Shown here one piece after another: positions 8,295 through 61,390 of a DNA stretch of 64,000 nucleotides. The notes under the pieces are model-generated. The model saw nothing but the letters and a program-made list of their open reading frames with translations, had not been told where the DNA came from and did not search any database. Positions within the stretch are counted from its first letter, which is position 1, and every line of letters starts with the position of its first letter. The translations under genes and the position numbers were made by a program. The DNA is from Gammaproteobacteria bacterium (lineage in GTDB: Bacteria; Pseudomonadota; Gammaproteobacteria; Eutrophobiales; Eutrophobiaceae), in assembly GCA_021773245.1 (NCBI GenBank), contig JAJFKK010000124.1:31336-95335 (forward strand), read 5' to 3'.

Positions 8295-8386
8295 GGCAAT
8301 ATGTCTTAAAACAGATTAGCAAATAACACTAATGGGCCGTTCAGTGATACACCTTATAATTAGTTAGATACAAAAGTTTAGATCCT

Positions 8387-11052: not shown

Positions 11053-12036
11053 TTATGTCAGAGCTATGCTTTGCGAGAACAACACATATTGATATGCGAA
11101 AAAACAAAACAATAGTATGGCTCCTTCAGGTCGTACAAGTTTACCCTTGCTTGTGATGAATACCATAGCGCCTATCAATAAAGTTAAGCCAATCATGGTT
11201 GGAAAATCTCGGTGTAAAACTTCTTCGGCGAAATAATCAGGGTTAATTAAAGTTGGGATGCCTAATACGGCAAGCATATTAAACATATTTGAGCCGATAA
11301 TATTGCCCACAGCAATGTCGGCCTCGTTTTTCTTTAAACTAATAATAGAGGCTGCAAGTTCAGGTAGGCTTGTGCCGATTGCGACAATAGTTAAACCTAT
11401 AACGAGATCCGGGACACCAAAAAATTCGGCGATAGAGACAGCGCCTCGTACTAGCAGGTCTGCCCCGAGTAATAACAAGACAAGCCCAATTAACAATTTC
11501 ATTATTGCTTTGCCTAATGCGTCCGGTTTGTTTGATTCATCGGAAAATTCTTGAGCAAATTCGGTTAGGAGAGGGTCGTCAGCACTGCTTCGTTTTGCAA
11601 TCCAAGTAATCCAGCTAATGGAAATAACAAGTGAGGCGAGCAATATTGCTGCATCAATTCGGCTAAGGTGGCCGTCTAGCATTACCGCAAGAGCAATCAT
11701 GGTGGCAGCACACATTAGCCCGTATTCTTTTTTTAATGTATTTGATGCAATCGTTATGGGGAAGATGAGCACACTAAAACCAAGAACTAAGCCGATATTA
11801 GTAATGTTAGAGCCGAGTGCATTACCAATAGCAATGGAGGTTTTGCCTTGCCAGGCAGAAACTGAGCCGACAATAATTTCAGGCGCGGAAGTGGCAAACC
11901 CAACAATTGTTAATCCAATTATTAACGGCGGCATACCTAATTGACGGGCTATGTTCGAAGCGCCATCAACAAAAATATCGGCGCCATATATAAGAAGTGC
12001 AAAGCCAATAAGAACTAATAAACATGAAACCAGCAT
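11053..12036 (-). CDS. yrbG: CaCA-family cation:proton antiporter (YrbG-like)
   Basis: 327 aa, two internal repeats with GNALGSNITN and GNIIGSNMFN alpha-repeat motifs. Confidence 0.8.
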   Translation of the reverse strand: MLVSCLLVLIGFALLIYGADIFVDGASNIARQLGMPPLIIGLTIVGFATSAPEIIVGSVSAWQGKTSIAIGNALGSNITNIGLVLGFSVLIFPITIASNTLKKEYGLMCAATMIALAVMLDGHLSRIDAAILLASLVISISWITWIAKRSSADDPLLTEFAQEFSDESNKPDALGKAIMKLLIGLVLLLLGADLLVRGAVSIAEFFGVPDLVIGLTIVAIGTSLPELAASIISLKKNEADIAVGNIIGSNMFNMLAVLGIPTLINPDYFAEEVLHRDFPTMIGLTLLIGAMVFITSKGKLVRPEGAILLFCFFAYQYVLFSQSIALT

Positions 12037-12165
12037 ATGCTAGCTATACTCCAATAAGAAAATTAACGAGATGATGCCAGAATAAGCGTGATCTGAGAAA
12101 TTTATAGTTATAGCCAAGATACTTAGGTTTTTACCTGAATCCGAAAAAATCATAGACTTCTAAGA

Positions 12166-12446
12166 GCCTGCTATTGTTTCATCTTTGTCTCTGTTGTCAT
12201 CGTAAAGGTGTCAATCACCAACAGTAGGCACTTTAGGCGAGGCGAGAGGAATGAGGTTTAGTCATTCTAAATGAATGACGAGCAACGTAGAGTGGCGCCT
12301 TTACGATGACAACCCGCAGGGCAGGGACTATTTTTGCACCCAGTGTCGTTGTCAATCACTCATGTAGAATACTACACTACGTTCTTTCCGCCTCACTGGG
12401 TGCAAAAATAGTCTCCAGCAGAGGTAAAGATGAAACAATAGCAGGC
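12166..12446. repeat. 281-bp nested inverted-repeat element (candidate MITE or structured RNA) in the yrbG/amgK divergent intergenic region
   Basis: 31-bp terminal inverted repeats (12166-12196 vs 12416-12446, about 28/31 matching) enclose two internal hairpins: 12193-12210/12297-12314 and an exact 19-bp pair 12327-12345/12394-12412. A small palindrome lies at 12261-12279 and direct repeat tgtcaatcac occurs at 12209 and 12350. Confidence 0.5.
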
Positions 12447-12475
12447 CCTGAGTTAAACTAATTATTAGACTTTGA

Positions 12476-13459
12476 ATGTCCAAACGTTATGAATCCTTGA
12501 AACACTGGTTAAGTGAAATACTTGAGACTAGTGACTTTGAATTAAAACCGGCATCGGAAGATGCCAGCTTCCGATCTTATTATCGTCTTTTCCTACAAGA
12601 CAAAACATTTATTGTTATGGATGCGCCGCCGCCGCAAGAAGACTGCAAACCCTTTGTAAAAGTAACCAATGCACTACTCGCCTGCGAGACAAATGTGCCG
12701 ACGATTCATAATCTGGATTTAGATCAGGGGTTTTTGCTCTTAGATGATTTTGGTGATGATTTATATCTCGATAAGCTCAATTCATCATCAGCAAATAAAC
12801 TATATTCTGATGCGATATCAGCATTAGCCGAGTTTCAGATATTGGCAGAAGTAAAAGAGTTGGATGACTATAATGAGCCTTTGTTACGGCGTGAAATGAG
12901 GTTGTTTACGGAATGGTTATTAGGAAAACATCTAAAGGTTGAACTGAGTAATGCCCAAACTAATTCAATGGCTTTGTTGTTTGATACGCTAGTGGATAAT
13001 GCACAGCAACAACCGCAAACCTTTGTTCATCGAGACTTTCACTCCAGAAACCTAATGATTACCAAAGCGAATAATCCCGGTATCATTGATTATCAAGATG
13101 CTGTTAATGGTCCGATTAGTTATGACCTCGTGTCTTTATTAAAGGATTGTTATATTAAATGGTCTAAAAATGAAATTAATGGTTGGCTTGAATATTATCT
13201 GAATCAACTTTCGCAGCGTGGATTTGAAGTTGACCGCGAGCAATTTCAGCGTTGGTTTGATTTAATGGGTGTTCAGCGTCATTTAAAAGCCAGCGGTATT
13301 TTTGCGAGGCTGTCTCATCGAGATGGTAAGCATGAGTATTTAAAAGATGTTCCACGAACGCTTTCTTATATCATTGACCTGCAAGAGGATTACCAAGAGT
13401 TAGTCCCATTGTGTTTAATAATAGAAGAATTTGTTTTGCCAAAGCTTGAGGAAACATAA
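12476..13459 (+). CDS. amgK: N-acetylmuramate/N-acetylglucosamine kinase (aminoglycoside phosphotransferase fold)
   Basis: APH-like kinase fold with HRDFHSRN catalytic motif. Paired with a downstream nucleotidyltransferase as in Pseudomonas amgK-murU. Confidence 0.8.
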   Translation: MSKRYESLKHWLSEILETSDFELKPASEDASFRSYYRLFLQDKTFIVMDAPPPQEDCKPFVKVTNALLACETNVPTIHNLDLDQGFLLLDDFGDDLYLDKLNSSSANKLYSDAISALAEFQILAEVKELDDYNEPLLRREMRLFTEWLLGKHLKVELSNAQTNSMALLFDTLVDNAQQQPQTFVHRDFHSRNLMITKANNPGIIDYQDAVNGPISYDLVSLLKDCYIKWSKNEINGWLEYYLNQLSQRGFEVDREQFQRWFDLMGVQRHLKASGIFARLSHRDGKHEYLKDVPRTLSYIIDLQEDYQELVPLCLIIEEFVLPKLEET

Positions 13460-17262: not shown

Positions 17263-17940
17263 TTATTTATAAAGTGTCGGATCAATTAATAGTGCAGCTT
17301 CAAATCCTTCTTTTCTAAAACGGCAGGAATCACAAACGCCGCAGGCTTTCCCTTCATCATCGGCTTGATAACAGGATACAGTTAATGCGTAATCTACATT
17401 AAGCGTGCTTCCTTTTTTTATGATATCTGCTTTGCTTAACTCAATGAGTGGCGTGTGTATTTTGAATGAAGCCCCTTCGACGCCTGCTTTTGTTGCTAAC
17501 GTCGCCAGCTGTTCATAGGCTTTAATATATTCGGGTCTGCAATCAGGATAGCCTGAATAATCAATCGCATTTACTCCGATAAAGATATCATTAGCATCAA
17601 TAACCTCTGCCCAAGCTAAAGCATAACTTAAAAATATAGTATTTCGTGCTGGCACATAGGTGACAGGAATCCCTTCAGAAGCTTCTTCAGGTACATCAAT
17701 AGAAGAATCTGTTAGTGCTGATCCACCAATTTGTCCCATATCAAGATGGATAGTTTTGTGATCAATGACATCAAATGATTCAGCTACTTTTATAGCCGCG
17801 TTTAATTCGCTTATATGTCGTTGCCCATAATCAAAGCTTAAGGCATAACAATCAAAGCCAAGATCTTTTGCGATGGCTAATGTAGTCGTTGAATCAAGTC
17901 CTCCTGAAACGAGAACGATAGCTTTGTTAAAATTGGTCAC
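17263..17940 (-). CDS. queC: 7-cyano-7-deazaguanine synthase
   Basis: [13 protein letters not shown]-loop and C-terminal Zn-binding cysteines CGVCDSC. Confidence 0.9.
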
Positions 17941-17981
17941 GGTATTTAAAAATAATTAGTTTAAAGAAAAATAAATTTAAT

Positions 17982-18668
17982 TTATTTGCCGGGAACATTG
18001 CCCCACAAATATTTATGAAGTTGTACTTGCATACGAACATTCAAACGATCATCTAATATCCAATTAGCTAAGTCAGTTGAGTTTTGTGTTTCGTGTGCAG
18101 GTGAAAAAAGAACTTCACAATAGTCTGTTAATTTAAACTCGTTTAGTTTTTGTTTTGCCCATTCATAATCAGCTTGATTACAAATAACAAATTTTATCTG
18201 ATCGGTTTTATTCAGGTATTCAAGGTTTTCAAATTTGTTTTTAGCTTCTTCTTCTGAAGCGGGTGTTTTAATATCGACTATTTTCATGACACGTTCATCA
18301 ACATTAGCAATATCAATAGCGCCACTGGTCTCTAAAGAAACGTCATAACCTTCATCGCAAAGTCTGGCGAGTAATTCATGACAAGCACGTTGTGCTAATG
18401 GCTCGCCACCGGTGACGGTGACGTGTTTAGCACGATATTGGCTTACCTCTTGAATGATGTCGTTTATAGTGTTCTTTTCCCCTTCATGAAAAGCGTAGGC
18501 CGTATCGCAATACTGACAGCGAAGAGGGCAGCCTGTTAAACGAATGAAGATTGTTGGTAAACCAACCTTGGTGGATTCTCCCTGAAGAGAATAAAAAATT
18601 TCATTAATGCGTAACTCAGACGAAGTTTGATCTTGCGCTTTTGAGTCAGGTTGAGCGCCGGGTTTCAT
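17982..18668 (-). CDS. queE: 7-carboxy-7-deazaguanine synthase (radical SAM)
   Basis: CPLRCQYCDT radical-SAM cluster motif. Adjacent to queC. Confidence 0.9.
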   Translation of the reverse strand: MKPGAQPDSKAQDQTSSELRINEIFYSLQGESTKVGLPTIFIRLTGCPLRCQYCDTAYAFHEGEKNTINDIIQEVSQYRAKHVTVTGGEPLAQRACHELLARLCDEGYDVSLETSGAIDIANVDERVMKIVDIKTPASEEEAKNKFENLEYLNKTDQIKFVICNQADYEWAKQKLNEFKLTDYCEVLFSPAHETQNSTDLANWILDDRLNVRMQVQLHKYLWGNVPGK

Positions 18669-18669
18669 T

Positions 18670-19515
18670 TTAAGTGTTAGGTTCTTTTGCGGAACCTATC
18701 TTTCTTAAGCGATCATCAGCAAGTCGTGCTGCAGTCGTTCCAGGGTATTGTGTTTTTACTTCTTCTAGGGTTTTATGTGCATCATCGGCATTGCCCAACT
18801 CATCATAGCTATAACCAATTTTTAATAAGGCATGTGATGCTTTTTTGCTATTTGGAAAAGTATTTATCAATGCTTGATATTCATTAATTGCTAATTCGTA
18901 TTTTTGCAATACGTAGTTGGTTTCACCTAACCAATACTGTGCGTTATCACAGAAAGCACTATCTGGATAATCTTTTATAAAAGATTTAAACGCGACATGG
19001 GCTTGATCATACTGAGACTCTTTGAGCAATTTAAATGCTTTTTGATAAACAGCTTCAGCTTTTGCTGGATCGACAGGCTCCATATCAGTATTTTCTTCAG
19101 TTGCTATGGTTTCTTCTGTATCGGTTGTTGCTTCCTGACCACCTTCAGTTTCTGGTGTAGCAGGCTCATTATCATTGCTTGCAGCAGGTTTGTTTGACTC
19201 TATACGTTGTAGGCGTTTATCAACATCCGTATATAAATCACGTTGCTTATTTTTAAGCTGATCTATGGTATGTGTTTGTACTTCAATTTGGCCGCGTAGT
19301 GTACTTACTTCAACTTTTAATGACTCTAATAATTCAAGCATATCTAGTAGTGCTTTATTATTAAGCGACTTTTCTATTTTTGACAGACGTCCGTTAATGT
19401 CTTCGGTTATCGGTTCAAATACTGGAGCCTTGTCTTTATTTGTTTCTGTCTCTCCTGCCAATGCAGCATTAAAAATAAAAAAGCTAATTAAACAAAGTAA
19501 AAGTCGCATACACAT
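18670..19515 (-). CDS. cpoB: Tol-Pal system protein CpoB/YbgF (coiled coil plus TPR)
   Basis: Signal peptide, coiled-coil N-domain, C-terminal TPR. Located after pal. Confidence 0.85.
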   Translation of the reverse strand: MCMRLLLCLISFFIFNAALAGETETNKDKAPVFEPITEDINGRLSKIEKSLNNKALLDMLELLESLKVEVSTLRGQIEVQTHTIDQLKNKQRDLYTDVDKRLQRIESNKPAASNDNEPATPETEGGQEATTDTEETIATEENTDMEPVDPAKAEAVYQKAFKLLKESQYDQAHVAFKSFIKDYPDSAFCDNAQYWLGETNYVLQKYELAINEYQALINTFPNSKKASHALLKIGYSYDELGNADDAHKTLEEVKTQYPGTTAARLADDRLRKIGSAKEPNT

Positions 19516-19531
19516 AAGCCATCAATAATTA

Positions 19532-20071
19532 TTAATATAAAATCTCAACCCGTCGATTTTGTTGCCAGGAAGATTCATCATGTCCATCAATTGCAGGTCG
19601 TTCTTCACCATAGCTGACTAATCTAATTTGGCTTGAAGATGCCCCTAATATCAACATTTGCTGTTTGACTGCTTGAGCACGACTTTCACCGAGCGCCAGA
19701 TTATATTCACGTGATCCACGTTCATCCGCATGCCCTTCTAGTGTAATAGTTGTTGAAGGGTTTTGGCTTAGATAAGCTGCATGTGCCTCAATAGCTGAGC
19801 GATATTCGGAACTTATTTCGTTACTATTGTATTCGAAATAAATGATACGAATTGATAAGGCACTTTGTGGATCGTCAAGTGCATCAAAACCAGAAGTTGA
19901 GTTGTCATCAGTACCATAAGCCTGAGCGCCACTCTCATCAGTTACGTTGACATTGGCGGCATTGCTACTGAGGTCTTCTACAGTTACAGGTTCTTCTTCT
20001 TTAACTTGCTCGTTGCTACAGCCAAAAAGTAGGCCAGCTAAACTTACAACTAATAATAAGCGGATAGACAT
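19532..20071 (-). CDS. pal: Peptidoglycan-associated lipoprotein
   Basis: Lipobox LFGCS and OmpA-like C-domain with NRRVEI. Confidence 0.9.
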   Translation of the reverse strand: MSIRLLLVVSLAGLLFGCSNEQVKEEEPVTVEDLSSNAANVNVTDESGAQAYGTDDNSTSGFDALDDPQSALSIRIIYFEYNSNEISSEYRSAIEAHAAYLSQNPSTTITLEGHADERGSREYNLALGESRAQAVKQQMLILGASSSQIRLVSYGEERPAIDGHDESSWQQNRRVEILY

Positions 20072-20149
20072 ATTTTTTCTCCTTCCCAGTCTTAATATAG
20101 ACTGCTAATTAAACAGCATAACATTCAAAAGCCAGCATTATAAAGTGGC

Positions 20150-21445
20150 TTATTTTAAAAAAGGCCCCCACGCGGGTTCGCGCACATCACCTTGTTGTAA
20201 ACCTAGTCGTTGATGAATACGGCCATCAGTCGATACAGCGGCAAGCTGACCGCCACGGACACCTGTGGTTGCATAAATGACCATGCCGCCGTTTGGTGCA
20301 AAACTGGGGGACTCATCCAACCTTGCATCTGTTAATACATCAATAGAGCCATTGGCAAGATTAAGTATTCCGATACGATATGAGCCAGAAACAGCATGAA
20401 CCAAGGTTATTGATTTACCATCGGGAGAATATTCGGGGCGGGCATTATATTTCCCTTCAAAACTAATACGTTTAGGATCGCCACCATTGACACTGACTTC
20501 ATAAATTTGTGGTCCGCCACTGCGGTCAGACGTAAATGCTAATTTTTGTCCACTGGGTGACCAGCTTGGTTCGGTATCAATGCCGCCGTGGCGGGTAATA
20601 CGCTGTAATGACTTATCATTAAGACTCATTATATAAATTTCGGTATTACCATCTTTAGATAAAGTCAAAGCCAAACGTGAGCCATCCGGCGACCAATCTG
20701 GCGAACTGTTAATCCCAGCAAATGAAGATACTAGCTCGCGTTGACCGGTTAAAATGTTTTGCACATAAATAGCTGAGTTTTTTCCTTCGAAAGAAACATA
20801 GGCAATTTTTTTACCATCTGGAGACCAAGATGGAGAAAGCAGAGGTTCTGCTGATTCCAGCAATATTTGTGCATTGTAGCCATCCGCGTCTGCAATTTGC
20901 AGGGAATGGACTTTTTTATTCTTAATCTTGTTAACTGTTATGTAAGCAACGCGGGTATCAAAGGCGCCAGGTATTCCTACAAGCTTTTCAAAAATGATGT
21001 CACTAATTTGATGAGCAACGCGACGAAGTAAATCCGGCTTGGCAGGTATGCGAAAACCAGCAATCTGTTTTCCTCGATAAATATCAACCAGACGAAAACT
21101 GACTTCATAATCGCCAGCATCCGTCAGGTTTAGTTTACCGATCAGGATGTTTTCCATGCCTAGCTTACGCCAGTCACCAAAATTAATACTGTCATATTCA
21201 CTTGGTCGTTGTGGTAAATCTGCTTCGTCCATAACATCAAAGCGGCCACTGCGTTGCAGGTCATTGCTAATAATCGATGTTAAGTCGATTGGCGCCACAC
21301 TGCTGGCTTGTGACCAGCCAAACGGTACGATGGCAATTGGTAAGGACTGCTCTATTCCTTGTGTTATTTTTATGTCGAGAACAGCTTGAGCTTGCAGCGA
21401 GACAAGTAACAAGCTGGCAATCATTAATTTAAATAAAACTTTCAT
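20150..21445 (-). CDS. tolB: Tol-Pal system beta-propeller protein TolB
   Basis: 431 aa with repeated PxWSPDG propeller motifs. Confidence 0.95.
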   Translation of the reverse strand: MKVLFKLMIASLLLVSLQAQAVLDIKITQGIEQSLPIAIVPFGWSQASSVAPIDLTSIISNDLQRSGRFDVMDEADLPQRPSEYDSINFGDWRKLGMENILIGKLNLTDAGDYEVSFRLVDIYRGKQIAGFRIPAKPDLLRRVAHQISDIIFEKLVGIPGAFDTRVAYITVNKIKNKKVHSLQIADADGYNAQILLESAEPLLSPSWSPDGKKIAYVSFEGKNSAIYVQNILTGQRELVSSFAGINSSPDWSPDGSRLALTLSKDGNTEIYIMSLNDKSLQRITRHGGIDTEPSWSPSGQKLAFTSDRSGGPQIYEVSVNGGDPKRISFEGKYNARPEYSPDGKSITLVHAVSGSYRIGILNLANGSIDVLTDARLDESPSFAPNGGMVIYATTGVRGGQLAAVSTDGRIHQRLGLQQGDVREPAWGPFLK

Positions 21446-33251: not shown

Positions 33252-34334
33252 TTAATTTTTCTTAGAGTTTGAAGGATATAACAATTTCTTAGCATGGATA
33301 AGCTTTCCTGTCTGAGCTGCATTATAGCCGGGCAATTTATTGATTTTATTTTGAAGCTTATTATCTTTGATTATGGCTCGAATTTTATTTTTAAGCTCTT
33401 CAGGCAAAGATTTATTCAAAGCAATAACGTAGGTTTCGTGAATTAACGGCAAGAATGAAAGTTTAAATTGATTAGCTGCGGCTTTTAGCCCAAACCCGAC
33501 ATCAGCTTGACCGCTTGAGATCATTGCCGCTACTGCGGTGTGAGTGAACTCTTCTTTTTTATAGCCATTAATCTTATTTTTGTTGATTCCTTCTGATTTA
33601 ATTAATTGATCGAAAATTGCGCGAGTACCTGAGCCTTGTTGTCGGTTTATAAATTTGATCGCGCGACGTGTGATGCCGGTTAGCTCTTTTAGATGTTTAG
33701 ACAGAGCAGGTTTGAAGATTAGCCCTTGTTGTCTTGTTGCGAGATGGATGTATAGGTGTTTTGTATCATCAAGCAATGGCAGGTATTCAGGCGCTAATTG
33801 TTTCGCAAGGCTGGCATCTGGAAAATGAAAACCGACAATATTATATTTAGAAAACTGTAGTTGCTTAAGGGCATCAAGACTGCCACGCGCATTGAAGTCT
33901 ATCTCCAGGTTTTCTTCTTCACATAAGTCCTGTAAAAAGTTAATAGATAAATCATGACTAGTAAATGCAGTGATTTTTTCCTTTTTATTACTTTGTCCTA
34001 ATAACGTATCAATTTCGATATTTAGTTTATCAGCGCTAGCGTGTAAGGCATCAGCATAGTTCGAATCAATCGCAAGTTTTGTTTGTATTAGTTTTTGACC
34101 TAATGGCGTCAAGCTGGTGCCTTTACCCCTCGCCAAAGTACATAACGGAGTATTAAACGCGTCGTTCCAGTGGCGGATGATTTCCCAAGCTGTGCGGTAA
34201 GAGATGCCGACATCAACAGCTGCTGCTTGTAATGAAGCAGTTAGATTAATGCTTGCTAATAGATCTAATAATCGCGGATCTAACTCTTGTTCTGAATCAG
34301 AAATTAGCCAGCGCACGTCAAAGTCGATCTTCAT
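33252..34334 (-). CDS. ModE-N-terminal-like winged-HTH regulator fused to a periplasmic-binding-protein-like domain (one-component oxyanion sensor)
   Basis: N-terminus LQAAAVDVGISYRTAWEII...RGKGTSLTPLGQKLI matches the ModE HTH. The C-terminal about 230 aa resembles a type-2 PBP fold. Lies divergent to the porin/TupA pair. Confidence 0.65.
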   Translation of the reverse strand: MKIDFDVRWLISDSEQELDPRLLDLLASINLTASLQAAAVDVGISYRTAWEIIRHWNDAFNTPLCTLARGKGTSLTPLGQKLIQTKLAIDSNYADALHASADKLNIEIDTLLGQSNKKEKITAFTSHDLSINFLQDLCEEENLEIDFNARGSLDALKQLQFSKYNIVGFHFPDASLAKQLAPEYLPLLDDTKHLYIHLATRQQGLIFKPALSKHLKELTGITRRAIKFINRQQGSGTRAIFDQLIKSEGINKNKINGYKKEEFTHTAVAAMISSGQADVGFGLKAAANQFKLSFLPLIHETYVIALNKSLPEELKNKIRAIIKDNKLQNKINKLPGYNAAQTGKLIHAKKLLYPSNSKKN

Positions 34335-34433
34335 TTATATGCAATATCCTTCATATTTAGTTTTAAAATATTAACGCTAATATAGAGAATAATAAAACAA
34401 TATATATGTAATATATTGCATATATTTAGGTGA

Positions 34434-35834
34434 TTGAGGATTTTTAAAATGAAAAAATTAAGATTTGTTACTTTGCTCTTATCGATAATTGCGATTTTAT
34501 CAACGTCAGTAGCCCATGCTGGAACCAATCAAGCATTGGTAGAATTGTTAAAGGCATTAGAAGAAAACGGAACGATAAGTAAAGATGTTTATGAATTGGT
34601 TGTTGAAGTTGCCAATCAGGGAGAAACAAATCAAGCAAAAGCTATTGTAGCAAAAGAAGATGTGAAGAAGATGATTCAGGAAGAAGTGAAAGTTGTTGCA
34701 AAGAAACAGGCTAAAGATCAGCCAAAAATAACAATGAAGGATAAGTTTGTTGTTGAATCGGGTGACGGTGATTTCAGTTTACGTGTCGGAGGCCGAATAC
34801 AAGCCGACGCAGCAGCTTATTCAGAAGATATTCGTCGGCAAAATGATGGAACAGAAATGCGAAGAGCGCGTTTATTTGTACAGGGAAAATTTTGGGATGC
34901 CTGGAAATATAAGTTGCAATATGATTTTGTAAATACAGGTAGCGCCGGAATTGCAGATGCCTATCTTCAATATGCCGGAATGCCTTGGAAAGTTACGGTA
35001 GGCCATTTCAAACAGCCTTTCAGTTTGCAAAACATGACTAGCTCAAAATACATAACCTTTACAGAACGTGGTTTGCCACATTTGTTTACACCTGGACGTG
35101 CAATAGGTGTCGGCGCTGGCCGTAGTGGAAACAATTGGAGCTTGAACGCCGGTATATTTGGTGAAGGGATTGACGCAGCTAGCGGTGATGAAGATGAAGG
35201 CTTCGCGTTGACGGGTCGTGCAAGCTATGCACCGATATTAAATAAACAACAGCATTTACATCTTGGTTCATCACTTTCTTATCGCAATAGTGGCTCAAAC
35301 GATACTCTTACTTTTCGTGACCGCCCAGAATCACATGTGACTAATGTGCGTGAAGTTAATACCGGTTCGATCAATGCGGATTCAAATTTACGTGCTGTAG
35401 CTGAGCTTGCATACACGTATGGACCATTTTCGTTGCAAGGTGAATATTATTATGTCGATATAGATCGAGATTCAGCGACACTCTCTGATCTAGATTTTTC
35501 AGGTTATTACGCTGAAGGTAGCTGGTTTTTAACCGATGACATGCGTAATTACAGTGGTAGAAAAGGTTCATATGGAAAAATCAAACCAGGATCAGTTGTA
35601 GGAAAAGGCGGTTTAGGGGCATGGCAATTGGCAATGCGTTTTAGCAGCGTTGATTTAAATGACGCAGACATAGCAGGGGGTGAAGAACAAAATTTTAGTT
35701 TGGGCATGAATTGGTTTGCTACAAATAATATTCGTATGAGTGCTAACTATGTCAAAGTGCTAGATGTTAAAGGTGGTGCCGGTGATGGTGATGAGCCAGA
35801 AGCTTTTCAGGTACGCGCTCAAGCTGAATTCTAG
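34434..35834 (+). CDS. OprO/OprP-family anion-selective porin
   Basis: 466 aa, signal peptide, beta-barrel periodicity, C-terminal aromatic residue. Resembles phosphate-selective porins. Confidence 0.7.
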   Translation: MRIFKMKKLRFVTLLLSIIAILSTSVAHAGTNQALVELLKALEENGTISKDVYELVVEVANQGETNQAKAIVAKEDVKKMIQEEVKVVAKKQAKDQPKITMKDKFVVESGDGDFSLRVGGRIQADAAAYSEDIRRQNDGTEMRRARLFVQGKFWDAWKYKLQYDFVNTGSAGIADAYLQYAGMPWKVTVGHFKQPFSLQNMTSSKYITFTERGLPHLFTPGRAIGVGAGRSGNNWSLNAGIFGEGIDAASGDEDEGFALTGRASYAPILNKQQHLHLGSSLSYRNSGSNDTLTFRDRPESHVTNVREVNTGSINADSNLRAVAELAYTYGPFSLQGEYYYVDIDRDSATLSDLDFSGYYAEGSWFLTDDMRNYSGRKGSYGKIKPGSVVGKGGLGAWQLAMRFSSVDLNDADIAGGEEQNFSLGMNWFATNNIRMSANYVKVLDVKGGAGDGDEPEAFQVRAQAEF

Positions 35835-37734: not shown

Positions 37735-38049
37735 CTAATTAATTAATGTCTCGAATTTATCAGTCTTATCTTGAGTGTCAAGCCAGCTAAGCTCTAGTTT
37801 GTCTCCAGCTTTTGCTCCTGCAAACATGAATGAAAGGTAAGGGTTTTTAGAAACAGCTCGGCTCCAATCACAAGAAAATACGATTTGATCATTATGTTTT
37901 ACTGTAACAAGTTTAATGAAATGTGCAGGGACAAGATTTCCGCTATCTATGTCAACTCTGAAACCCGTTTCCATCGGGTGGCGTATAATCGCGCGTACCG
38001 TAGTAATATTATTCCTGGTTTTAGTTTTTAAACGAATCGAAGAAGACAT
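37735..38049 (-). CDS. soxZ: Thiosulfate-oxidation carrier complex protein SoxZ
   Basis: 104 aa with a SoxZ-like sequence. Immediately follows soxY. Confidence 0.85.
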   Translation of the reverse strand: MSSSIRLKTKTRNNITTVRAIIRHPMETGFRVDIDSGNLVPAHFIKLVTVKHNDQIVFSCDWSRAVSKNPYLSFMFAGAKAGDKLELSWLDTQDKTDKFETLIN

Positions 38050-38498
38050 TATCCGCAGCCTCCCTCGTGAACTTCAACGAATGTTTTTGTTGAAAAAAAC
38101 TTTCCATTTGATTTTACGATAACAATGATGTCTGAGGGTTGTTCCATTTTTATTCGCGTAGAGACAAAGCCAACACAACCAGGGGAAAGATCAAAGTTTG
38201 CAATTAATGGCGTTGGGTTTTTATCAACAAAAATCGTAATAGATTCAAGATTGGATAAATTAGTATTTATTTTTAGTGGTACGACAGCCCCATTTTCGAC
38301 TTCAGGGTGTACGCCTATTTTAATCTGATCGGTTTCTTCAAATTGTTGTTCTGGAAAGTAACTATTAATAGCATGGTTATAATCGGTGGCATCAAATGCC
38401 TCTTGGTTCCATTTTGCCAAAGCAGATAGCGGCTTAAGCAAGCCAAATAATAAGGTTGAACCAGATGCAAGGTACTGAAGGAGTTCTCTACGTAACAT
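38049..38498 (-). CDS. soxY: Sulfur carrier protein SoxY
   Basis: Tat signal RRELL and C-terminal GGCG carrier-cysteine motif. Confidence 0.85.
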   Translation of the reverse strand: MLRRELLQYLASGSTLLFGLLKPLSALAKWNQEAFDATDYNHAINSYFPEQQFEETDQIKIGVHPEVENGAVVPLKINTNLSNLESITIFVDKNPTPLIANFDLSPGCVGFVSTRIKMEQPSDIIVIVKSNGKFFSTKTFVEVHEGGCG

Positions 38499-39996: not shown

Positions 39997-40046
39997 CCTA
40001 TAGCAACATATTATCTCTCGTTTGCTTTATCATTACAGTTTATACC

Positions 40047-40197
40047 CATGATACTTCGAAATGCAGGTTTATAGCACGCCTGTTTTCATCCAGAGCTGCG
40101 TTGCTCCTCCTTACAGGGAGCGGCCATGTGCGTCGTCTCGTCTAGCTCTGTATAAAAACAAACGCACTCTAAATCCAGCATTTCGAAGTATCATAGG
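40047..40197. repeat. About 150-bp element bounded by near-perfect 20-bp inverted repeats, upstream of pfp
   Basis: catgatacttcgaaatgcagg (40047-40067) versus ccagcatttcgaagtatcatag (40175-40196), with a 16-bp exact core. Internal sub-palindromes cagagct/agctctg and gctcc/ggagc. Confidence 0.45.
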
Positions 40198-40263
40198 TAT
40201 CTCACAACAAATAGACCGTATTTATTGCGATTTGTTTAAAAATATATCAGGAGAATTAAGAAT

Positions 40264-59234: not shown

Positions 59235-59282
59235 GCGTTAATCTTTTTCTAGAGGCATGATATTTGGAAATGCAGGAATTAG

Positions 59283-59379
59283 AGTGCTTCTGTTTTTATT
59301 CAGAACAAGACGCGACGACGCGCATGGCCATCCCCTGCAAGAAGGAGCAACGATGTTCTGGATGAAAACAGAGGTGCTA
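59283..59379 (+). ncRNA. Candidate structured RNA: 25-bp stem with 5 G-U wobbles on the plus strand only, enclosing a 47-nt loop with SD plus a 9-codon ORF
   Basis: agugcuucuguuuuuauucagaaca pairs with uguucuggaugaaaacagaggugcu in full when G-U pairs are allowed on the plus-strand RNA. On the minus strand these become C-A mismatches. The loop carries gaaggag-N5-AUG UUC UGG AUG AAA ACA GAG GUG CUA UAA. Confidence 0.3.
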
Positions 59380-59399
59380 TAAACTTGCATTTCTAGATA

Positions 59400-60299
59400 T
59401 CATGTTTCTATGCCGCCAAATTCTTCAAGTAACTCTTTAATGAACTCATGTAACTGTAACACCATCACAGCAAAGTCTTGGTCAAACTGAGTTGCTCTAT
59501 CATCAGCTTCGCCTTCAGCTTGTTCTTGAATAATTTCTTCAAAACGAACACGTTTAATAGCAAAGTCATCCGATAAAACAAAACGAATTGCATCACGCCA
59601 AATCATTGCAAGTTGCGTAACACGTTTACCTGCTTTTAAATGACTTAATACTTCAGCGCTTTCCAGCTCCTGATTTTTACAACGAACGACGTTTTTACTT
59701 TCGCGAGGGTTCTGTAATTCACATTCATTATCAAGTTCAAATATTTTTGGCGCAGTGTCCTGTAACCAATGCGTCATAATATTTGCTGCATCACCATGAC
59801 ACTTTAAAGGCACGACAGGTAGGCTGCCTAAGGTTGCGCGTAGATGGTCCATAAATTCTTCAGCCTTATTCGCACTGGCAGAATCAATAATTAATAATTT
59901 ATGTTTAGGATCAAAATAGGCATAAACCAGATAGGAGCGCGTTAATGCACGTGGTAATAAGGAATGAATGACATCTTCTTTAAGAGTACGTTTTTCCTGA
60001 CGGTAAATAGGGCGCGTTTGTTCCTGTTCAAAATCAAGCACCTTCTCATCAACTACTTCGTTCACAGCTGCAGGAGGCAAGATCTTTTCTTGTTTACGCG
60101 CACAGATCATGACGTAATCACCGGTACGATGCGTATACATCTCGCTGTTCTTGCCTAAAGGCGGCACCCAGCCATATTTGGAAAAATCCATATTCGCGCA
60201 AGGGGTAAAGTTTTGCTCTGCTAAGGCGTCTTCTAACGTTTCAGGAGAAATATCAATATCTTTAGTAAGACGGTAAATACGAAGGTTTTTGAACCACAT
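59400..60299 (-). CDS. rdgC: Recombination-associated protein RdgC
   Basis: MWFKNLRIYRL... canonical RdgC N-terminus. 299 aa. Confidence 0.9.
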   Translation of the reverse strand: MWFKNLRIYRLTKDIDISPETLEDALAEQNFTPCANMDFSKYGWVPPLGKNSEMYTHRTGDYVMICARKQEKILPPAAVNEVVDEKVLDFEQEQTRPIYRQEKRTLKEDVIHSLLPRALTRSYLVYAYFDPKHKLLIIDSASANKAEEFMDHLRATLGSLPVVPLKCHGDAANIMTHWLQDTAPKIFELDNECELQNPRESKNVVRCKNQELESAEVLSHLKAGKRVTQLAMIWRDAIRFVLSDDFAIKRVRFEEIIQEQAEGEADDRATQFDQDFAVMVLQLHEFIKELLEEFGGIET

Positions 60300-60386
60300 T
60301 ATTATTATCTATTCTGTTTTGAAAAAGAGGCGGATTATCTCGTACCTGAGCTTAGGTAAGCAAGAGAAATAAAGCCATGACGCCTT

Positions 60387-60410
60387 GCGTTATATAACGG
60401 GGTGCGTTAT
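60387..60410 (+). promoter_or_regulatory. Putative HigA operator overlapping the higBA promoter
   Basis: Perfect 12-bp palindrome cgttatataacg (60388-60399) plus a third gcgttat half-site at 60404-60410, directly upstream of the higB start. Confidence 0.4.
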
Positions 60411-60419
60411 GCTTTATTG

Positions 60420-60701
60420 ATGATACGGAGTTTTAACTGCGAACAAACGGAATTGATCTGGAATGGTCAGGTAACTAGAAAATTACCTCATGCCATGCAG
60501 GCTGTAGCTCGTAGAAAATTAAGGATGATAAATAACTCTACCGTGTTGAATGATTTACGAATTCCGCCCGCTAATCGATTAGAAAAGCTGAAAGGAGGTA
60601 GAGCTGGACAATATAGCATTCGTATAAATAATCAGTGGCGAATATGTTTTGTCTGGGAAAATGGCGACGCATTAAGAGTCGAAATTGTTGATTATCACTA
60701 A
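60420..60701 (+). CDS. higB: HigB-family (RelE/ParE superfamily) mRNA interferase toxin
   Basis: MIRSFNCEQTELIWNG...LKGGRAGQYSIRINNQWRICFVWENGDALRVEIVDYH matches the plasmid-maintenance killer protein family. Start set at the ATG at 60420, not the GTG at 60402. Confidence 0.8.
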   Translation: MIRSFNCEQTELIWNGQVTRKLPHAMQAVARRKLRMINNSTVLNDLRIPPANRLEKLKGGRAGQYSIRINNQWRICFVWENGDALRVEIVDYH

Positions 60702-60716
60702 TACAGGTTTATTGAA

Positions 60717-61007
60717 ATGAAGAAATTACCAAATATACACCCCGGTGAAATCTTGCTGGAAGAATTTTTGCTACCGATGGAAATTAGCCAAAATCGTATC
60801 GCGCGTGATATTGGTGTGCCACCAAGGCGAATTAATGAAATTGTGCATGGCAAACGATCAGTAACAGCAGATACCGCCGTTCGATTGGCAAAATATTTTA
60901 ATGTATCAGAATCATTTTGGATGGGATTGCAATCAGACTATGATGTTGAAGAAGCGCATCGTGTATTGGGAAAAAAATTAGATAAGATTCCATCTTATGC
61001 AGCATGA
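60717..61007 (+). CDS. higA: HigA-family antitoxin (XRE-type HTH)
   Basis: IHPGEILLEEFLLPMEISQNRIARDIGVPPRRINEIVHGKRSVTADTAVRLAKYF matches the VapI/HigA consensus. 15 bp after higB. Confidence 0.85.
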   Translation: MKKLPNIHPGEILLEEFLLPMEISQNRIARDIGVPPRRINEIVHGKRSVTADTAVRLAKYFNVSESFWMGLQSDYDVEEAHRVLGKKLDKIPSYAA

Positions 61008-61016
61008 TAATTAAAT

Positions 61017-61298
61017 ATGAAATCGCCTGTAAAAAAATTATTAGAAAGTCACAAAAAGCTTATTCATTCAGAAATGATGAAAGTCACCTCGCATGTGCAA
61101 AGAGAAGATAAAGACAAGATCTGGTTGATTAATACAGTAACAATAGAAGGCTATGATGTGCCGTTTAGATTTAAACGAAAGAAACAATATCATAATCTTA
61201 AAGGAGCTTATGTGAATATGACTTATTATCCAATAGTCGAGAATGTTGGTGGGTTTGATATGGAGATTATGACTGTTGTTAGGATTAAGAAATCATAG
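61017..61298 (+). CDS. Hypothetical protein (93 aa) co-directional with higBA
   Basis: ORF only. No family recognised. Confidence 0.35.
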   Translation: MKSPVKKLLESHKKLIHSEMMKVTSHVQREDKDKIWLINTVTIEGYDVPFRFKRKKQYHNLKGAYVNMTYYPIVENVGGFDMEIMTVVRIKKS

Positions 61299-61390
61299 AT
61301 CTTGATTTCATTTTATTCGTAGTTTTTTTTAACTTATGTTTCGCTATCAAGCGAAACATAATCTTTAACGAAGGTATAAAATTAAAAGGA

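Follow-up and report, generated by a model that had tools for sequence, protein, structure and literature searches.

A 293-bp palindromic insertion between yrbG and amgK, with a homologue in Methylophaga, is a candidate MITE-like mobile element

Why does the 439-bp spacer between the divergent genes yrbG and amgK carry a nested set of inverted repeats, and what kind of sequence do these repeats form? The spacer lies in a 64,000-nt stretch of gammaproteobacterial DNA (hereafter the window, meaning the whole stretch analyzed). A first-pass annotation had described a nested inverted-repeat element at this place and proposed that it was a MITE or REP-like mobile repeat or a novel structured non-coding RNA. 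All the features that it described are present in the sequence. The AmgK assignment is a best match, yet its score lies under the NCBIfam equivalog cut-off. The locus is laid out as follows:

11053-12036, minus strand: YrbG-type Ca/Na antiporter gene (yrbG), left neighbour of the element
12160-12452, no strand: inserted element in full, 293 bp; carried by the window and L001, missing from L002, L003 and L076-L079
12160-12196, plus strand: left terminal inverted repeat (arm A), 37 nt, pairs with 12416-12452; exact core 12166-12186
12193-12216, plus strand: hairpin B, 5' arm, 24 nt, 88% complementary to B'; continues straight from arm A
12209-12218, plus strand: TGTCAATCAC, copy 1, direct duplicate of copy 2
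12239-12287, plus strand: segment X, within the hairpin B loop; complementarity to X' about 73%, which permits an alternative rod-like fold
12261-12279, no strand: small palindrome GTCATTC-TAAAT-GAATGAC within the loop of hairpin B
12290-12313, minus strand: hairpin B, 3' arm (B'), partner of 12193-12216
12314-12325, no strand: linker CCGCAGGGCAGG between hairpins B and C, with a mini-hairpin CCC-GCA-GGG
12326-12345, plus strand: hairpin C, 5' arm, exact 20-bp stem
12347-12394, minus strand: segment X' in the loop of hairpin C, partner of X
12350-12359, no strand: TGTCAATCAC, copy 2, includes a TTGACA hexamer on the minus strand
12394-12413, minus strand: hairpin C, 3' arm (C'), partner of 12326-12345
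12416-12452, minus strand: right terminal inverted repeat (arm A'); exact core 12426-12446
12476-13459, plus strand: AmgK-like kinase gene (amgK), right neighbour of the element, followed by murU

The modules follow one another in the order A-B-X-B'-linker-C-X'-C'-A'. Arms A and A' (37 nt) are 86% complementary and share an exact 21-mer core (12166-12186 / 12426-12446). The 31-nt terminal repeats noticed earlier (12166-12196 / 12416-12446, 28/31 complementary) are borne out and extend outward to these 37 nt. The internal stem given as an exact 19 bp is indeed exact and is really 20 bp long (12326-12345 / 12394-12413), while the second internal hairpin could be placed at 12193-12216 / 12290-12313, the small palindrome at 12261-12279 and the two copies of the duplicated motif TGTCAATCAC at 12209 and 12350. 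Beyond that description, the loops of the two hairpins are complementary to each other; with about 73% complementarity between X and X', the element as a whole thus amounts to a degenerate global palindrome as well. The linker at 12314-12325 belongs to the best-conserved block of the element family (B'-linker-C). No arm motif of the element occurs elsewhere in the 64-kb window.

To place the element in its lineage, orthologous loci were fetched via the closest AmgK homologues. The closest named ones (71-72% identity) are labelled as Thiotrichaceae or Proteobacteria metagenome-assembled genomes. Six relatives have no element: their yrbG-amgK spacer measures 118-158 bp, the gene order is unchanged (AmgK identity 91% in L002, 77% in L003, 76% in L076 and L077, 79% in L078 and 76% in L079), and the flanks of these empty sites align with the window right up to the element ends. 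The empty site reads ...ATCATAGACTGTCGATAGTTAAAC... in L002 and L079, ...CTGTAGATAAAC in L076 and ...CCCTTAGTTAAT in L003; the filled site in the window reads ...ATCATAGACTT-CTAAG[AGCC...GGCC]CTGAG-TTAAAC. Since the orthologous spacers are empty in six relatives, the most parsimonious reading is that the element was gained recently, as an insertion in this strain's lineage.

Inverted-repeat chimeras occur in amplified and metagenomic assemblies, and both an assembly artefact and a palindrome formed by chance were weighed here. The comparison of filled and empty sites rules out the artefact. An independent Logan assembly, SRR15505515 (L001, AmgK 99% identical), moreover has the same 439-bp spacer with the element present and differs from the window by two substitutions, one of them within the element and one in the flank. 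A 79%-identical homologue in another genus and a folding energy far from that of shuffled sequences (z = -13), both described below, likewise count against this explanation, to which we assign a practically negligible probability.

The ends of the insertion carry two pentamers that bear on its target site:

12160-12164, no strand: CTAAG, left outer pentamer, paired with CTGAG
12448-12452, no strand: CTGAG, right outer pentamer, partner of 12160-12164

They differ at one position in five, and the empty sites hold a single CTNAG-like pentamer (CTTAG in L003, CTGTAG in L076, CGATAG in L002 and L079). The target may have been such a CTNAG-like pentamer, and a 5-bp duplication (or a 3-bp TNA duplication) followed by one later substitution would fit CTAAG/CTGAG. 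If the outer pentamers are a target duplication, the element proper is 283 bp long (12165-12447). In the Methylophaga-type contig L086, the homologous copy ends in CCAAG...CTAGG, an inverted and not a direct repeat, and has no clean direct repeat. Since this copy also retains the pentamer at its ends, and the pentamer reads as a palindrome, duplication and repeat extension are inseparable: CTAAG/CTGAG is ambiguous between an imperfect 5-bp or inner 3-bp TNA target duplication and the outermost part of the inverted repeat.

Evidence for a wider family came from plasmids. A blastn search matched window 12291-12455 to positions 18640-18805 of NC_017858.1, an IncP plasmid of Methylophaga frappieri, at 76% identity (E = 6e-22). 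The plasmid fragment sits between a truncated trbL, which has lost its N-terminal part and retains only Pfam TrbL positions 126-215, and a block made up of bfd, a TonB-dependent receptor gene and cysZ. Homologues of the receptor identify this block as Methylophaga chromosomal DNA, and L086, a JGI contig, encodes a receptor 100% identical to that of the plasmid. L086 contains a full-length element of 324 bp (12404-12727), placed between the divergent genes bfd and mdoG. It aligns with the window copy from end to end at 79% column identity, the two copies agree in module order and termini, and the profile match of the element to the Methylophaga-type copy also spans the full length. The L086 copy has an extra 51-nt GC-rich block ahead of B' and lacks 22 nt of the B loop. 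The terminus ..GCCCTNNG of arm A' recurs in both L086 and the plasmid, and the plasmid holds the right-hand 235 nt of the L086 copy at 99% identity.

Two other accounts of the plasmid match were rejected. The homology does not start exactly at the trbL junction, as L086 extends it 68 nt further, and the apparent first 19 residues of the plasmid "TrbL" are therefore element sequence. Nor does the plasmid homologue represent the 3' end of the aminotransferase gene found next to bfd in other Methylophaga genomes. Because a homologue is present in a distant genus, Methylophaga, and in an unrelated genomic context, sequence comparison shows the element family to move between sites and hosts. On the plasmid, the element marks the breakpoint of a chromosomal gene pick-up by a conjugative plasmid.

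Some further observations concern Methylophaga replicons. The N-terminal loss in trbL on NC_017858.1 (L051 2634-7627) coincides with the captured block of cysZ, TonB receptor gene, bfd and 235-nt element, and this plasmid, typed as conjugative in PLSDB, may be transfer-defective. At ~1,902,000-1,922,300 of M. nitratireducenticrescens CP021973.1 (L083-L085), a 3,095-bp unit carrying bfd and a TonB-dependent receptor gene is repeated in tandem four or more times, and a truncated aminotransferase gene is present in one boundary unit. L086 carries a Tn3-family transposase gene (DUF4158 + DDE_Tnp_Tn3; 17587-20559) 5 kb from the element. The element has no match elsewhere in L086, so no Tn3-type end there resembles the element repeats.

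Copy number was assessed with a two-copy profile, which detected no further copy when run over the 64-kb window and about 800 kb of fetched related loci. An 18-mer from the terminal repeat, searched as an exact word in 185,579 species-representative genomes, had 14 single matches ascribed to chance, none of them two-armed; the conserved 18-mer GGCAGGGACTATTTTTGC had 22 chance matches in JGI metagenomes, one or more of which fall in histidine-kinase coding sequence (AGTIFA motif). Such exact-word scans would miss copies of about 80% identity and are weak evidence on copy number, the GGCAGGGACTATTTTTGC scan having missed L086 owing to one mismatch. Four motif scans of viral contigs returned nothing relevant. 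When the element, the repeat arm and the Methylophaga copy were compared by blastn with phages and plasmids, only the M. frappieri plasmid was recovered. Neither a transposase partner nor any element whose ends match turned up in the plasmid and phage collections or the fetched loci. Open reading frames in the element reach at most 51 aa, and the frames differ between the window and Methylophaga copies; the concatenated six-frame translation had no match among 5.8 billion proteins.

These searches divide the original MITE or REP-like proposal. Its mobile part is supported by the empty sites and the Methylophaga homologue, and its repeated part finds no support in the DNA searched, with one copy in the window; REP-like fails on size and copy number. 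The BLASTN check of copy number that had been suggested, in which multiple copies would have indicated a MITE, gave one copy in the window, none in the ~800 kb of related loci and the distant homologue in Methylophaga. We read 12160-12452 as a low-copy, horizontally spread, non-autonomous MITE-like mobile element of a new family, and put the probability of this reading at roughly 60%. The 37-nt terminal repeats would then be the probable recognition sites of a transposase supplied from elsewhere, and the architecture may mirror the two ends of a parent insertion sequence, for instance hairpins that normally control transposase expression.

The same data can be read as an immobile relic, in which the ends of an insertion sequence or transposon, inserted once per lineage, were fused when the interior was lost, leaving a single scar. 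This would agree with one copy per locus set, with an interior that varies (the 51-nt GC-rich block only in L086, the 22 nt only in the window) and with an inward-facing promoter-like site near one end that resembles a transposase promoter. However, both copies share the internal junction, B'-linker-C being best conserved, across genera and sites; the deletion therefore predates the separation of the copies, and the short form has moved at least once. The near-perfect stems of the window copy and the 21-nt core identical in both arms are also unlike an old scar, and we regard the relic as unlikely, if still worth keeping in view.

Is the structure itself more than a by-product of palindromic sequence? 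The plus strand has an RNA minimum free energy of -140.5 kcal/mol against -76.9 ± 4.9 for shuffles (z = -13.0), and at minimum energy it folds into a three-way junction whose arm A leads straight into arm B, in line with the fold that the first-pass annotation had predicted. The structure of the element is far beyond chance, and the earlier view that the region is more than a simple divergent promoter region also holds, in that the spacer contains a discrete inserted element with this fold. The minus strand folds with z = -13.1, and DNA parameters give z = -11.2; equal folding of both strands is as expected for a DNA palindrome. In the window copy, the three-way junction is favoured by 35 kcal/mol over the rod-like alternative based on X:X'; in L086 the two are about iso-energetic. 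The plasmid fragment of the element has no excess stability (z = -0.3).

Conservation of pairing was scored by mapping the three-way junction of the window on a two-sequence alignment (window and L086), with controls in which the partner was slid by 1-3 columns. In this mapping, 93% of cells pair, and 15 pairs have changed on both sides yet remain paired, against 0-2 in the slid controls. The helices, compared with L086, are as follows:

helix A: 31 pairs, 6 compensatory, 3 broken
helix B: 20 pairs, 5 compensatory, 1 broken
helix C: 25 pairs, 3 compensatory, 6 broken

In helix C of L086, the A/T-rich proximal 11 bp are retained and the distal part has decayed. Between the copies, X:X' consists mostly of unchanged bases, with 1 compensatory, 5 one-sided and 5 broken pairs, and the rod-like pairing has no separate support from changes. 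The first-pass annotation had named a single copy without conserved pairing or transcription as the outcome that would count against it: the copy is single in the window, and the pairing is conserved, with 15 compensatory changes. As far as two aligned copies reveal, palindromic symmetry is maintained in the family and the foldback architecture A-B-B'-C-C'-A' is inherited. Two independent sequences do not distinguish between the possible causes of this symmetry, be it concerted evolution of the palindrome arms, symmetric sites for protein binding, or structure at the level of RNA or hairpin DNA.

Two promoter-like sites bear on the likely effect of the insertion on its neighbours:

12327-12355, minus strand: promoter-like site TTGACA-17-AATAGT, best in the window element (10/12); faces outward across hairpin B and the left end, toward yrbG
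12130-12158, plus strand: putative native amgK promoter TTTACC-17-TAGACT, outside the element; weak sigma-70 match (8/12), read by eye

The first of these has an ortholog in L086, where it is the only promoter-like site detected in the spacer and faces mdoG. Between the two copies, 12/12 hexamer positions are identical and 8/17 spacer positions differ. The second drew no call from the promoter scanner, and its block is conserved in L002 and L076-L079; we infer that the short ancestral spacer offers no other plausible amgK promoter. The element begins 2 nt past the putative -10 box of this site and ends 23 nt ahead of the amgK ATG. An amgK transcript from the native promoter would be expected to start with the whole 293-nt three-way junction as its leader; alternatively, amgK-murU would rely on a promoter inside the element. 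The conserved sigma-70-like site of the element may in turn drive transcription out of the left end, toward yrbG or mdoG. The two full-length copies are oriented alike with respect to the divergent genes on either side (n = 2, too few for statistics), at these distances:

window copy: right end to ATG 23 nt (amgK), left end to ATG 123 nt (yrbG)
L086 copy: right end to ATG 68 nt (bfd), left end to ATG 131 nt (mdoG)

Folding, pairing and promoter together bear on the possibility of a horizontally acquired structured ncRNA gene or RNA leader, with the terminal repeats as its closing helix and transcription from an internal or the amgK promoter. The extreme fold speaks for it, as do the excess of compensatory pairs over the controls (five of them in hairpin B) and the conserved promoter-like site, with its invariant 17-nt spacing despite a diverged spacer sequence. 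In the window stems A and B, 5/6 transition-type mismatches are G-U on the plus strand, which also favours this reading; a strand-asymmetry test (G-U vs A-C) was not decisive. However, the opposite strand folds equally well, and the promoter-like site lies on the minus strand while the G-U bias favours the plus strand. Stem C has decayed in Methylophaga (6/25 pairs broken), the plasmid fragment lacks excess stability, the neighbours are functionally unrelated (amgK/yrbG vs bfd/mdoG), and no terminator was found after the element. Rfam gave no relevant match at E <= 10 for the window region or at E <= 1 for L086, the only match above gathering score in the whole window being a tRNA, and with two sequences the co-variation fits concerted evolution of a DNA palindrome as well as it fits RNA structure. 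An RNA gene or leader is in our judgment improbable; of the original ncRNA proposal, conserved pairing remains, and the RNA itself is not required by a sequence that folds equally on both strands, matches no Rfam family and has unrelated neighbours.

Recognition of the termini by a transposase alone leaves the five compensatory changes in hairpin B unexplained. The three-way fold itself could conceivably be under selection, which would make the element a structure-dependent mobile module distinct from classical MITEs, for example the substrate of a recombinase or transposase acting on folded single strands, or else a mobile promoter/RNA cassette that rewires divergent promoter regions. In either form it would have spread among distant gammaproteobacteria at very low copy number. 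We hold this, too, to be improbable.

A further alternative would be a DNA signal active in single strands, such as a plasmid or phage hairpin promoter or priming site, or a parvovirus-like T hairpin, displaced to the chromosome. The A-B-B'-C-C'-A' layout does correspond to a T- or Y-shaped hairpin, a -10-like hexamer lies within stem C, and one fragment is on an IncP plasmid. That fragment, however, is a truncated by-product of chromosomal capture and is located in a disrupted trbL instead of a leading or origin region; the two full copies occupy intergenic sites on chromosomes; no fold places the -35 and -10 hexamers in duplex simultaneously; and no match was found in phage or viral collections. 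Such an origin seems very improbable.

The same genome contains a second, unrelated palindromic family of about 150-170 bp. One copy, at window 40036-40206, has a 29-nt inverted repeat and a rod-like fold (z = -9.9); others lie at window 59257-59404 (83% identity, opposite orientation) and at L002 191-357 (75%), and the site of the L002 copy is empty in the window at ~8320-8345. The family matches neither Rfam nor plasmids. It is a genuine dispersed, insertion-polymorphic MITE-like family, and with three copies and an empty site, the lineage therefore demonstrably hosts active miniature palindromic repeats, which counts in favour of the MITE-like reading of 12160-12452. Elsewhere in the window, positions 60300-61390 form 1.09 kb without an ORF of at least 120 aa, with a 24-nt overlapping palindrome at 60376-60411 and no Rfam match above gathering score. 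An AT-rich imperfect palindrome at 34336-34424 (37-nt arms, 76% complementary, 15 nt apart) occupies the divergent spacer between ORFs 33252-34334 (minus strand) and 34434-35834 (plus strand). The window also encodes SoxY/SoxZ (38049-38498 and its neighbour, seen via L074 1132-1895) and a PFK-family (PF00365) phosphofructokinase; the genes for SoxY, SoxZ and the PF00365 phosphofructokinase suggest a sulfur-oxidizing gammaproteobacterium.

If the MITE-like reading is correct, a new family of small mobile palindromes would be common to a sulfur-oxidizing marine gammaproteobacterium and Methylophaga. It would offer an example of such elements landing in promoters, here 2 nt past the putative -10 box of the peptidoglycan-recycling operon amgK-murU, where the element may supply a promoter of its own. 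For annotation, 12160-12452 would be labelled a mobile insert, not a riboswitch or RNA gene, and could also serve as a strain-level marker.

How does the element compare with known kinds of small repeats? REP and BIME sequences are imperfect palindromes of 20-40 bp, present in tens to hundreds of copies and mostly at the 3' ends of genes; this class was rejected for an element of 293 bp, single in the window and in a divergent 5' spacer. The parvovirus (AAV) inverted terminal repeat shares the A-B-B'-C-C'-A' layout and its T- or Y-shaped hairpin, an analogy of shape only: our element is chromosomal and bacterial, has twice the length and large loops, and lies away from any genome end, with no Rep-type nickase nearby. 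Tn3-derived miniature elements (TIMEs) have repeats of about 38 bp beginning GGGG and a 5-bp duplication. The element resembles them in its size (about 200-300 bp), its ~38-bp repeats and a possible 5-bp duplication; a TIME was nevertheless rejected, as the repeats begin CTAAGAGCC / CTCAGGGCC with no terminal GGGG, and no matching ends accompany the Tn3-family transposase that lies 5 kb from the element in L086. In the IS5 superfamily and its MITEs, targets are of the 3-bp TNA or CTAG type, and elements of the IS1031 group end in GAG. The G(A/G)GCC ends of our element, its TAA/TGA flanks in a C-TNA-G context and the CTNAG-like empty sites are similar and give a lead only, whereas no IS5-type transposase or matching insertion-sequence end was found and the duplication is imperfect, and missing in the Methylophaga copy.

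Prokaryotic MITEs are under 500 bp, have terminal inverted repeats as well as direct repeats that erode over time, and lie in intergenic regions; their transcripts form stable stem-loops, sigma-70-like promoters are common, and copy number goes down to 1 in some genomes or families (PMC10969869). Our element has the size (293 bp), the lack of coding capacity, the terminal repeats, the presence/absence polymorphism and the unrelated contexts of this class. With Correia (Neisseria), QMITE2 (Coxiella), MITEAba12 (Acinetobacter) and ERIC it shares a length under 500 bp, a non-coding sequence, terminal repeats and an intergenic location, as well as very stable stem-loops predicted for the transcript, an internal sigma-70-like promoter sequence and strain-polymorphic insertion; copy number in such MITEs can be as low as 1 (PMC10969869). 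Unlike these MITEs, to which it has no sequence similarity, it has longer repeats (37 nt), its fold is a conserved three-way junction instead of a single rod, and its family, at about 79% identity, spans distant gammaproteobacterial genera.
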